Of a stretch of 64,000 bases of DNA, positions 15,215 through 31,880 are shown one piece after another. The notes below the pieces were generated by a model that ran no database searches, was not told the origin of the DNA, and saw nothing but the letters and a program-made list of their open reading frames with translations. The stretch comes from Eledone cirrhosa (taxonomy: Eukaryota): the NCBI GenBank assembly GCA_964016885.1, contig OZ024746.1, positions 87,358,001 to 87,422,000 of the forward strand. Reading direction: 5' to 3'. Made by a program: the position numbers and the translations under genes. Position 1 is the stretch's first letter; every line of letters begins with the position of its first letter.

Positions 15215-16020
15215 ATGGAATAGTATGAAACGAAATTTCATTTCTCACTCTTAGTACGACACTTACTTAAATGTAAGTATGTATGTATACGTACATACAT
15301 ATATGTATACAGACGTACAGTAGCATGTATATATATATACAAACAGGCACACATATATATATGCACGTATCAGTTTACCGAACATTTATTATAATGCTCG
15401 GTTTGTTCGTTTGTAAACAAACAAACAGCCTAAGTTACGCCGTACAGTGTTTAGGCAACCAGGTCACCTTTTTGTTCAACACTGACACAGGAACGATGTA
15501 CTAGTTTCAAGCTTATTAGCTAACGTCAGCACCGTATACCTTTCTGCCAGATGGTTGAACGTCCGAAAGTATATACTTTCCTTATGAAAATTAACGGCTG
15601 AGCAGCCTGATTTGCATATCGAGTAAGTTCAGTCGGCCAGGCGCACCGAAAACGATAAATGGAATATAATGAAACGAAATTCCATTTCTCACTCTTAGTA
15701 CGGCACTTACTTAAATGTAAGTATGTATGTATACGTACATACATATGTGTATACATACGTACAGTAGCATGTATATATATATACATACAGGCACACATAT
15801 ATATATATATGCACGTATCAGTTTACCGAACATTTATTATAATGCTCGGTTTGTTCGTTTGTAAACAAACAAACAGCCTGAGTTACAAACGAACAAACCG
15901 AGCATTATAATAAATGTTCGGTAAACTACGTGCATATATATATATGTGTGCCTGTATGTATATATATATATACATGCTACTGTACGTCTGTATACATATA
16001 TGTATGTACGTATATATACA
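15215..16020 (-). mobile_element. Family D: ~444-bp non-coding tandem unit with hammerhead (non-LTR retrozyme-like), plus terminal fold-back
   Basis: atggaat..gaaacgaaatt..tctcactcttagtacg starts at 15215 and again at 15659; 15887-16020 is an inverted copy; homologs at 30.8-31.9 and 47.2-47.7 kb. Confidence 0.8.
15493..15535 (-). ncRNA. Minimal type I hammerhead motif (A9 mutated), family D
   Basis: Minus strand: ACGGTG-CTGACGt-T-AGC(taataa)GCT-T-GAAA-CTAG-TA-CATCGT; 6-bp stem I, palindromic stem III ACUAGU, GUA triplet. Confidence 0.75.
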
Positions 16021-16021
16021 T

Positions 16022-17847
16022 TCTATATATATATGTATATATATATAACATTAAGTATGTGTGTGTTTCTGTGTATTACTCATAGGGGCCTACATCTTAC
16101 GACCGATTTACATGAAACTTTACATGCTTATAGATTAGTCATCCGGGAGTGTTTTCTATATATCAGCGTATCGTTGTTTATATTCCGGGGTCATTAAATA
16201 TTCAAACATAAGTTAACCAAATACACAAAATCCTAGTTAAAACAAATTAAAGGGAAGTAAATCTTGATACCTAAGAAGTAGGACAGAAGGAATTATTTCC
16301 CGTTGAGAGTTTCTCTAATCGGTTAAAACAATTGCCACACAATGACAAATGGCTTCTTGGTCGTTAGACCAGCTAAAAATACATTGAACAAAATATTTTA
16401 AAAATCATCTTAAGAAACATCAACACCATTCTCTCATGAGACACTACTAATGAAAAAGAACGAATGTAGGAGAAATCGTCAATCCATATATACTTTCACC
16501 GTTAACTCAGCAGACGACATTACTTAATATCTACACTCCTACATCGATCTGTATGCTAATTCTCTCTCTCACTCTATTATATATATATAATCTTTCGCTC
16601 TATTTTATATATAACTGTATATATATAACATCATATACGATTTCACTCAACATTTCGCCATTTGCTACACCTTACAACCAATTTTCAAGAAACTCGCCAG
16701 CTCATGAATTTCCAACCAGGTTTTATTCCTACTTGGACTCCGTTCATCTCAGTTCACACTATTGACCTCTACTTCAACCGGGTGTCAAAGATAATTCTTT
16801 AACTTTTTAAGTCTGCGATAAATGGTTACTTTCTACAATACGGCTATACTGTTCTCTGCATTAATCTCTTTCATGGGTGCTATTGCAGATGTGCTTAAAC
16901 TACTCTTTAGATAATGGCTCCGAAGAAGATTAACAAAATTGGTCGGAAAACGGCGCGAGGCAGCAGTATGACAAATAGACGAGCGAGTGAGCCACTACAA
17001 AATGCCGAAATAAGACGAACTAGAAACGCAATGTCCACGGCCGCTGCACGCGCTGCTGAAACGGAGCATCGCTGCGTCCGCAGATAGACAAGAGACGATG
17101 TGTCGAAGGCCAGTGCTCAAGCTTCTGAAAATGAGGGTCGGCGCGTTCGCAGACAAAGAAGGAACGTAATGACGACGGCCATTGCACGGGCATCTGAAAA
17201 TTAAGTTCAGCGCGTTCGCAGACAAACAAGAAACGCAATGTCGACGGCCAGTGCACGATTTTCTGAAAATAAGGGTCAGCACGTTCCCAGACAAAGCCAC
17301 TGCACGGGCTACAGAGACATCATCCGAAAGGCGTGATCGGTTGCAGATTAATCTTCAAAGAAGCCTTTCCAGAAATGGTCTTTCAAGGTCTCCCAGTTCG
17401 TGATGGCTACTTAAGGCGTTTGAATATAGCCCTACCTTCAATAATGCCACCCATGCTGATGTGATCATTGGCGATATGTCCACCATTTGCACCTACTGCA
17501 ATGCCATGAAGTGGCCAGGAGAACCATCTGGCATGTGCTGCGCGAATGAAAGGTAAGCTTACCTTTCCTCCTTGATCTACCTGAGCCATTGAAGACGTAT
17601 CTGGCAGATGAAACAGTGGAGTCTAAGCACTTCCTTGAAAATATCCGGAAATACAACTGCGTCTTTCAGATGACATCGTTTGGAGCAAACATTGTTAAAA
17701 GACGGTTTCATGCCTACATTTAAAGTTCAGGGGAAACTGTGTGTGGCCATAGATGAGTCATCGAGAAGCAGTCGCTAAGATCAACACATTTTCATCAAAG
17801 CAGATATTATTTCACCTACCCAGGCAACGCTGGATACTGCTGTCAGT
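16022..17847 (+). mobile_element. Internally deleted Helitron
   Basis: 5' TC-tatatat start; 3' hairpin ccaggcaacgctgg followed by a degenerate CTAG-like end into TA; carries RepHel N-terminal coding remnant. Confidence 0.75.
16914..17737 (+). pseudogene. Helitron RepHel N-terminal region, frameshifted
   Basis: MAPKKINKIGRK..., 69-bp coding repeats, then IGDMSTICTYCNAMKWPGEPSGMCC/GKL..LPEPLKTYL...SKHFLENIRKYNCVFQMTSFGA...GFMPTFKVQG, the standard Helitron Zn-finger/FQMTSFG region. Confidence 0.85.
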
Positions 17848-30533: not shown

Positions 30534-30803
30534 AAATAATTAAGTCAAATATGTAAAATTTGTCTTCGTTTATTATAAATTATATATTTCGGTGACAGCC
30601 ATCATTGGCTGTGACCTCTTCAGGCAGTCCGAATAGATGTGGGTAAAGCACACTTCAACAACATGTGTACCTGTTGTTCTCACACCAATTCGGACTGCCT
30701 GAAGAGGCCACAGGCAATGATGGCTGTCACCGAAATATATATAGCAGTATATCTATAATCTATAACAAACTAAGGGAAATTTTACATATTTGACTTAATT
30801 ATT
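30534..30803. repeat. Inverted repeat with hammerhead core in both arms
   Basis: 30534-30634 is the imperfect reverse complement of 30688-30803, with a ~53-nt spacer. Confidence 0.85.
30694..30748 (+). ncRNA. Type I hammerhead ribozyme motif, intact core
   Basis: ACTGC-CTGAAGA-GGccACAGgC(aatgat)GGCTGTcaCC-GAAA-TATATA-TA-GCAGT; stem I ACTGC/GCAGT, palindromic stem III, AUA triplet. Confidence 0.8.
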
Positions 30804-30812
30804 TTATATATA

Positions 30813-31880
30813 TGTTCGGTGAATCCATATGTACATATATATATGTGTGAATGTTTGTATATATATACACATACTACTGTACGTCTGTATATATATATAT
30901 GTATGTACGTATACATACTTATATTTAAGTAACAGCCGTACTAAGAGTGATAAATGAAATTTCGTTTCATTTCTCCGTTTATATGTATATATTTGAAATT
31001 TCATTTTTTCAATCCATGTATATATACATGGAAAAAATGAAATTTCATTTCTCAATCTTAGTACTGCTGATACTTAAATATAAGTATGTATACGTACATA
31101 GATATATGTATACAGGCGCACAATAATACGTATATAAATATATGTATAGAGACGCACAGTAGTATGTATATACATATATGTATACAGACGCACAGTAGTA
31201 TGTATATACATATATGTATACAGACGCACAGTAGTATGTATATACATATATGTATACAGACGCACAGTAGTATGTATATACATACATGCACACACATATA
31301 TGTACGTATGGGTTCTCCGAACATTTATTATAATGCTCGGTTTGTTTGTTTTGTAAATAAACAGCCCGAATTATTAGCCGTACAGTGTTCTGGAACCATC
31401 GTTGCCATTTTGTTCAACACTGACAAAGGAACGATGAATTGGTTTGTAGCTTATTAGCTGTCATCAGCCGTACTAAGAGTGATAAATGAAATTTCATTTT
31501 TTCCATTTGTCACATTCGGTACGCCCGGCAAACTAACTCAATCAATATGCAAATTAATCCTCTAAGCCGTTAATATGCATGAGGAATGTATATACTTTCA
31601 AACGTTCTATTGACTGACAGGAAGGTATACGGTGCTGATGACAGCCAATAAGCTAGAAACTAGTTCATCCTTCCTTTGTCAGTGTTGAACAAAATAGCCA
31701 CGATAGTTGCCGAACACTGTACGGCTACTAATTCGGGCTGTTTGTTTACAAAGAAACCGAACAATATAATATATGTTCGGTAAACCCATACGTACATATA
31801 TATGTGTGTGCATGTATGCATGTATATACATACTACGGTGCGTCTGAATACATATATGTATGTAGGTACACATACTTATA
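30813..31880. mobile_element. Family D cluster with several inversions and an internal 36-bp minisatellite
   Basis: Segments homologous to 15215-15660 in both orientations; acgcacagtagtatg recurs every 36 bp at about 31152-31275. Confidence 0.8.
31631..31669 (+). ncRNA. Minimal type I hammerhead motif, family D, intact core boxes
   Basis: GGTG-CTGATGA-C-AGC(caataa)GCT-A-GAAA-CTAG-TT-CATC; stem I GGTG/CATC, palindromic ACUAGU, GUU triplet. Confidence 0.8.

Follow-up and report, generated by a model that had tools for sequence, protein, structure and literature searches.

A non-coding hammerhead repeat of Eledone cirrhosa and its putative small nuclear RNA-type promoter block

Retrozymes without long terminal repeats (non-LTR retrozymes) are known from metazoans, in which, according to a 2020 review, they seem to be without a promoter and without any motif that would indicate a driver (PMC7761336). 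How animal retrozymes reach the high transcription reported for them is an open question. Vertebrate retrozymes have been linked to Penelope repeats, with no analysis of promoters in the accessible portions of that study (Li, Clavereau & Pollet 2026, bioRxiv 10.64898/2026.07.22.740005), and short interspersed elements (SINEs) derived from small nuclear RNA (snRNA) do not carry the upstream promoter with them (PMC4494074). Here we describe a hammerhead-bearing repeat, family D, from a 64,000-nt stretch of the genome of Eledone cirrhosa (assembly GCA_964016885.1, contig OZ024746.1, positions 87,358,001 to 87,422,000 of the forward strand; hereafter the window), which belongs by sequence criteria to the non-LTR retrozymes. 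We give a probability of about 0.6 to a model in which this non-coding repeat would be mobilised in trans by a Penelope-like reverse transcriptase (RT)/endonuclease and each unit would carry a snRNA-type promoter of its own.

The family D unit measures 442-444 bp and is protein-free, and in the window it forms the 444-bp head-to-tail repeat, without any open reading frame (ORF), that a preliminary description had placed there; its coordinates were verified in the sequence, and the same head-to-tail junction occurs twice, at 15659 and at about 31503. The longest methionine-initiated ORF in the doubled unit spans 47-64 amino acids and there is no RT-GIY-YIG ORF, so the unit is not an autonomous Penelope-like element. 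Retrozyme units here (425-465 bp, GC content 36-38%) are short, non-coding and below 50% GC, as expected of non-LTR retrozymes, whose tandem units measure about 150-450 bp. Copy A comprises about 1.5 units plus an inversion and is not a long array, and copy B (31035-31878) has the same layout but belongs to an older subfamily. The two copies are made up as follows.

15215..15658, minus strand: full unit of copy A, young family D subfamily, 96-98% identical to the best full-length genome copies; the 3′ end enters a (TA)n tract.
15659..15886, minus strand: upstream partial unit of copy A, 5′-truncated (u221-444), which creates the head-to-tail junction at 15659.
15883..16037, plus strand: inverted piece of copy A (u243-395), joined head-to-head, without the ~50-nt 3′ tail.
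15607..15618, minus strand: 12-mer of copy A containing the octamer; matches the host U6/U6atac/MRP element, with one substitution in copy A.
15610-15617 (minus strand) and 31547-31554 (plus strand): octamer ATGCAAAT, in both window copies.
15596..15601, minus strand: TCAG box of copy A, 26 nt before TATA, at the position of the host U1/U2 TCAGT box; weak (2.1 bits).
15566..15579, minus strand: palindrome of copy A holding a TATA-like box (15575-15570), the box lying 42 nt after the first base of the octamer.
15544..15545, minus strand: predicted transcription start of copy A, where TATA+30 and TCA+57 meet between a C and an A.
15493..15535, minus strand: type I hammerhead of copy A, its stem III palindromic and its core with U in place of A9; predicted cut between 15499 and 15498.
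31503..31878, plus strand: older-subfamily unit of copy B (u1-381), with 12-mer (31546-31557), TATA (31589-31594) and hammerhead (31629-31671; intact core, predicted cut after 31665).
31469..31502, plus strand: tail of the upstream partial unit of copy B; its last six bases are a T6 run (31497-31502), a candidate terminator for RNA polymerase III (Pol III) that lies 50 nt before the octamer.
31035..31468, minus strand: inverted copy of copy B; the tail is present, the hammerhead is damaged, and a 36-bp tandem expansion lies inside (31094-31288).

Across the 3.0 Gb of genome searched, the exact 12-mer-plus-core pattern gave 16,250 matches (control, 0), and an evenly spaced 600-kb sample (60 x 10 kb) contained nine profile matches, amounting to 0.35% of bases. 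Young family D copies were 99.3% and older ones 97.2% identical to the consensus of their own subfamily, with 87-88% identity between the two subfamilies, values that come from the best 30 loci per query and are biased to top matches. The copies were dispersed and numerous and ranged from monomers to multimers, as in retrozymes, with arrays at loci L009 and L195 and some arrays of 5 to 7 or more units. Four of six listed sequencing runs, all contigs of unspecified kind, showed no more than the presence of the sequence and carry no weight for or against its transcription.

Mapping of ends at 51 young loci (59 minus 8 that overlapped) yielded 147 segment ends, 100 of which fell at u436-442 (51 junction, 44 TA, five other) and 35 at u380-395 (30 TA), with 12 elsewhere. 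Among the non-junction ends at these fixed sites, 74 of 84 enter (TA)n. The tail was confined to one end in 31 of 37 two-ended loci, the inverted partner lacking the ~50-nt tail. The copies have a Penelope-type anatomy: their 3′ ends are fixed and lie in (TA)n, their 5′ truncation varies, and a partial tandem stands next to an inverted truncated copy. Published Penelope-like elements likewise show partial tandems, an inverted partner and a one-end tail (bioRxiv 10.1101/2021.04.23.441226).

Segments sampled with a mid-unit query crossed the cleavage site in 29 of 29 cases, some of these being paired copies of one locus, and 11 of the 29 reached the junction. Since all sampled segments cross the cleavage site, the templates would have been multimers or circles, not cleaved linear monomers; the latter would be expected to produce a pile-up of 5′ truncations at that site, of which the 29 segments contained none (nearest starts at u157 and u159, none at u163). 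This backs the earlier reading of the unit as a non-LTR retrozyme whose copies were made on a multimeric or circular template. Private mutations were shared at 43 of 671 variant sites within loci and at 115 of 26,811 between loci. Most of this sharing comes from a small number of arrays whose units alternate or repeat, and so points to later DNA duplication; we set it aside as evidence for a rolling circle, and long arrays arose at least in part by later duplication at the DNA level. Taken alone, the combination of a retrozyme and Penelope-type mobilisation is very probable, and mobilisation in trans by a Penelope-like RT/endonuclease is likely.

The stems and core of the hammerhead were located at both window copies, in agreement with the preliminary description. 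In an alignment of 11 lineage representatives drawn from family D and a second family, E, 93.7% of cells pair, against 22-46% in slid controls, and both sides change in six of 13 pairs, counts that are inflated by the relatedness of the sequences. Although an Rfam scan at the gathering threshold gave no match, this covariation backs the hammerhead, which we take to be real as a motif. In family D, the core was intact in 43 of 50 copies of the young subfamily and in 24 of 34 of the old one, and with the covariation these counts indicate one type I hammerhead per unit, as in non-LTR retrozymes. The core of copy A is substituted (CUGACGU), unlike those intact cores of its young subfamily, and the 10.1-11.1 closing pair of stem II is unpaired in seven of seven family D rows, which counts against our model; hammerhead activity is therefore not assured. 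Stem III is a 2-bp palindrome, and a short palindromic stem III has been described as requiring a dimer (PMC4209133).

Host snRNA-type genes were fetched for U6 (three lineages), U6atac, RNase MRP, U1, U2 and RNase P; most of 14 extra U6 matches and four of five U6atac matches were without a promoter and were handled as retrocopies. The 12-mer TATG[CG][AT]AAT[TG]AG was found at -76 to -78 in all five Pol III type-3 genes examined (the three U6 lineages, U6atac and MRP), together with TATA at exactly -30 in the same five, and in none of nine U1/U2/RNase P promoters, where the best score was at most 9.9 bits. Conversely, all nine host U1/U2 promoters have TCA[GA]T at -56 to -58, with AATTA near -90. 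Host U1, U2 and U6 genes share a distal ACCTCCCTT-like word near -260, by which a distal octamer in the vertebrate style was ruled out. As a by-product, the snRNA promoter words of this animal are defined. Beyond these words, the host U1/U2 genes have a TATA-like word near -30 to -35, and the sole RNase P RNA gene (locus L122) combines the U1/U2-type TCAGT box with the shared distal word and has no Pol III 12-mer, which suggests transcription of the snRNA type by RNA polymerase II (Pol II).

On a matrix of the Pol III element, the family D consensus scores 20.6 bits, as compared with 17.5-20.8 for the host sites; units of D and E score 17.2-20.6, with 16.5 in one D copy, and background sequence reached 15 bits at 11 of ~1.2 million positions. 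The preliminary description had linked the octamer to snRNA-type promoters, and the region does match the host's own snRNA-gene promoters. By this match the octamer belongs to the proximal U6/U6atac/MRP element rather than to a distal enhancer, and the palindrome noted between octamer and hammerhead, present at 15566-15579, proves to hold the TATA-like box. The octamer is likewise present in both diverged window copies, but its sharing is not itself evidence of selection, because about 40 nt around it are identical in two copies that are 87-88% identical overall. Between the two D subfamilies, moreover, its flanks are kept at least as well; we therefore examined distant relatives, and it is from more distant families, not from the D pair, that the evidence of selection on the motif comes.

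Family E, with tandems of 466-467 bp, was found by a hammerhead scan blind to the motif and is 69% identical to D, and the longest invariant block between the two outside a TA-rich stretch is a 10-mer within this region. A DNA search for E returned no candidates, though the family is abundant. We also observed long E arrays with units of 466-469 bp (about 30 units near C1:5.74 Mb; loci L220-L242 and L260), which are a retrozyme turning into a satellite. Genome-wide, the 12-mer followed by 68-98 nt and CTGAYGA, with D excluded through a non-D next base, gave 8,438 matches (control, 1), and the first 100 of these comprised 76 E, 15 F, three G, three H, two D variants and one unassigned. Families F, G and H have hammerheads of their own with differing stem III palindromes and show no BLAST similarity to D or E. 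Moreover, nine of the 14 sites scoring at least 14 bits in the unselected 600 kb fall in hammerhead families (D, F, G and J), and the sixth family, J, surfaced in that sample.

In the six families (D, E, F, G, H and J), the 12-mer lies 88-105 nt before CUGA and a TATA-like box 40-48 nt after the 12-mer. Family H has exactly the U6 spacing (47-48 nt); in the other five families (D, E, F, G and J) it is 40-43 nt, with 42 nt in D. TATA was in none of the search patterns, and an unguided alignment still matched both blocks to the host promoters. YCA stands 24-27 nt before TATA in all ten sequences with an assigned TATA. The full U1/U2 box is near-perfect in one J copy (11.9 bits; 7.0 in the other) and weak in D, where 0.5% of background positions reach the 2.1 bits of its TCAG box, and the spacing of AATTA is mismatched. 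TATA+30 and TCA+57 converge on a predicted start 72/73 nt after the octamer, at a step from C to A in D and F, which in D is 16 nt before CUGA and about 47 nt upstream of the cleavage site. Ovarian transcripts of newt satellite 2 reportedly start ~47 nt before the cut, a distance like the one predicted here.

In six families, then, the upstream block matches the promoter words of host snRNA genes, with spacing conserved, and we moderately favour the view that it is an internal snRNA-type promoter within each unit. As to the polymerase, we lean slightly towards Pol III, on the 12-mer, a G-TATA and oligo-T at the unit end, although the TCA box is placed as it is in Pol II snRNA genes. In old D, E and F, the next 12-mer is preceded at a distance of 38-50 nt by a run of T5-6, and the T6 run with which units of the older subfamily end (31497-31502) has been lost from young D (15215-15230). 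If Pol III transcribes young D, this loss would raise read-through and could, speculatively, relate to its recent spread.

Several observations weigh against a promoter. The spacing of 40-43 nt in D, E, F, G and J compares with 46-48 in host Pol III genes, a distance that only H reproduces; the shortfall from U6 is about 5 nt, half a helical turn, and in insect U6 promoters this spacing varies by only 1-2 bp (PMC1761439). TATA is weak in E (CATATAAC) and G and is not the top-scoring site in E or in three single copies, the Pol II box scores poorly in D-H, and the YCA observation was post hoc. Because F, G and H were found via the motif, its presence there is circular, while H rests on three decayed copies and J on two. 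Other hammerhead families in the same data are without the motif in the 130 nt upstream, and inspection of D and E revealed no counterpart of the host's distal word. All four unit bodies lack a T4+ run, which is not significant (P 0.31-0.67, dinucleotide shuffle), so T-run depletion was dropped as a Pol III signature, and young D is without a T6 run. We noted at least three further hammerhead families without the block, near (TA)n ends (L125, L129:7734, L137, L177 and L178; L166 and L170; L136), which are probably Penelope terminal repeats.

Furthermore, the motif forms the 5′ arm of a hairpin in the RNA of D, E and F; a promoterless retrozyme transcribed by read-through from its flanks, as the published model has it, could have kept the 12-mer and TATA words for this reason, as hairpin arms or as protein-binding sites in the RNA. 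Both words lie in hairpins in these three families, with a compensatory change in F; the units are strongly self-paired (z -4.7 and -6.6), and the 2020 review considers metazoan retrozymes seemingly promoter-free (PMC7761336). However, the 5′ arm is constant while the 3′ arm varies, with a mismatch retained, and H pairs the motif with a different, upstream RNA arm. Structure alone would also not account for a motif identical to the host -77 element, for T/G variants that host genes have too, or for the TCAGT box of J, and we hold this explanation to be unlikely.

Broken Penelope-like ORFs occur in the window and in many other loci. One such element in the window (42777..45033, plus strand) comprises an RT part and then a C-terminal GIY-YIG part (broken ORFs 42777-44240), ends in (TA)n and is not homologous to family D; its RT motifs are presumably those of a Penelope-like element. 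A second, 5′-truncated copy of its 3′ end, at 34953-35340, also ends in (TA)n, and a relative with 87% protein identity is present in locus L160. The Penelope remnants went unrecognised in Pfam and PDB sequence searches; an Atlas search with them yielded GIY-YIG clusters in which 18-50% of members carry the family. In a non-exhaustive 1.28 Mb of the genome, none of 23 matches to the Penelope endonuclease had a D-like 3′ region. No autonomous partner was found among these 23, which weighs against our model, and the match of locus L212 to family E was rejected as a partner, being T-rich low-complexity sequence.

Such elements are the starting point of a different account, in which the block is an ordinary Pol II promoter (POU/Oct plus TATA) inherited from an ancestral Penelope terminal repeat and resembles U6 only via a common POU-type site. 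The octamer ATGCAAAT is the classical POU octamer. The spacing in most families is unlike that of U6, Penelope terminal repeats contain promoters (PMC6765202), and vertebrate retrozymes derive from Penelope terminal repeats (bioRxiv 10.64898/2026.07.22.740005). The match, on the other hand, spans 12 bases and so runs past the octamer, H has the exact U6 geometry and J a U1/U2 box at the U1/U2 distance, and the 12-mer was in none of the 23 endonuclease matches (3′ regions only, not the 5′ regions of full-length elements); we consider this account less probable again. That the unit is merely the terminal repeat of a longer coding Penelope-like element, its copies being truncated ends, is very improbable: the insertion anatomy is the same and Penelope remnants are common in this genome, yet the unit closes on itself (at u436-442, 51 ends run into u1 and 44 into (TA)n), arrays reach 5 to 7 or more units, and no D-like Penelope 3′ region was seen among the matches, the lone E match being low-complexity.

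From the unit, its copy number, its insertion anatomy, the hammerhead covariation and the promoter-word match in six families, we infer for the promoter-bearing retrozyme a cycle of transcription, cleavage and circle formation with a polymerase and a driver. Host snRNA-gene factors would bind the block of 12-mer, TCA box and TATA, and the transcript would begin about 72-73 nt past the octamer, at a point 16 nt ahead of CUGA. As the start lies downstream of the promoter, only read-through into a second tandem unit would yield RNA that contains it. Two hammerheads would pair via the palindromic stem III, cut, and free unit-length RNA able to circularise, and uncut multimers would serve as templates too. 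A Penelope-type enzyme would nick (TA)n, prime at either CATTTA site (u~442 or u~391) and copy across the junction. Such copying would give 'partial + full' units with an inverted partner, restoring the tandem that the promoter needs.

We extend this, tentatively and as a rather doubtful proposal, to a more general one: at least six retrozyme families may take an upstream snRNA-gene promoter along when they retrotranspose, something of which SINEs are incapable, with the promoter 5′ of the hammerhead and restored by tandem read-through plus circularisation, with hybrid Pol III (U6-type) and Pol II (U1/U2-type) words, and with leaky oligo-T termination setting the amount of promoter-bearing template. 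The model makes base-level predictions, namely a start 72-73 nt after the octamer, three motifs, and a family series from U6-exact (H) through intermediate to U1/U2-like (J). If it is true, an external snRNA promoter would have been made mobile, the case of newt satellite 2 would be extended to invertebrates, and more than 24,000 potential sites for snRNA factors would have been added to the genome.

Other features of the window are listed here.

30804..30970, plus strand: separate 5′-truncated copy of family D (u265-434).
47170..47666, strand not assigned: third locus, an inverted pair of 3′ fragments without hammerhead and without promoter block.
17022-17296 and 20580-20710: 69-bp GC-rich tandem repeats.
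58518-59737, minus strand: fragment of a reverse transcriptase of the long interspersed element (LINE) type (Pfam RVT_1, E 2.9e-12).

The preliminary description's view of an undescribed system is not supported, as non-LTR retrozymes, their Penelope link and internally promoted hammerhead repeats (newt, schistosome) have already been published. A literature search, mainly of freely readable main texts, found neither these families nor any retrozyme with a U6-type element described; related elements could be listed in supplements to the 2020 and 2026 papers. What is new is the internal snRNA-type promoter block in retrozyme families, for which newt satellite 2 and the schistosome repeats are precedents.

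Like family D, metazoan non-LTR retrozymes consist of short non-coding tandem units of a few hundred bp with GC below 45% (Cervera & de la Pena 2020, PMC7229834; PMC7761336; bioRxiv 10.64898/2026.07.22.740005), and they share with it a type I hammerhead with a short palindromic stem III, highly self-paired RNA and co-occurring Penelope-like elements. They differ in that the six families here share a host snRNA-type block and have insertions with Penelope-type tails and inversions, and in that circles, predicted for family D, have been demonstrated for the coral, mussel and axolotl retrozymes. Endonuclease-positive (EN+) Penelope-like elements have the same partial tandems, inverted 5′-truncated partner, one-end tail, microsatellite targets and hammerhead within a repeat (Craig et al., bioRxiv 10.1101/2021.04.23.441226; Cervera & de la Pena 2014, PMC4209133); unlike them, family D has no ORF, a tail of ~50 nt rather than 30-40, and no autonomous partner among the 23 endonuclease matches. 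In the Schistosoma repeats Sm-alpha and Sj-alpha, as in our model, a Pol III promoter precedes a hammerhead and a tandem is needed, the promoter falling at the 3′ end of the cleaved monomer (Ferbeyre et al. 1998, as cited in PMC6765202). The block in Eledone cirrhosa is instead like the upstream promoters of snRNA genes, and nothing similar to a tRNA was noticed in the units, of which no tRNA scan was made. The promoter of the Schistosoma repeats is said to be of the tRNA type. Finally, newt satellite 2 is likewise a tandem hammerhead repeat with an internal snRNA-type promoter and a dimer hammerhead (Coats, Zhang & Epstein 1994, as cited in PMC2220036 and PMC6765202), and the difference is that it is reported to be driven by Pol II, whereas here the strongest word is that of the host Pol III type-3 element, accompanied by TATA and a U1/U2-like box and present in several families.

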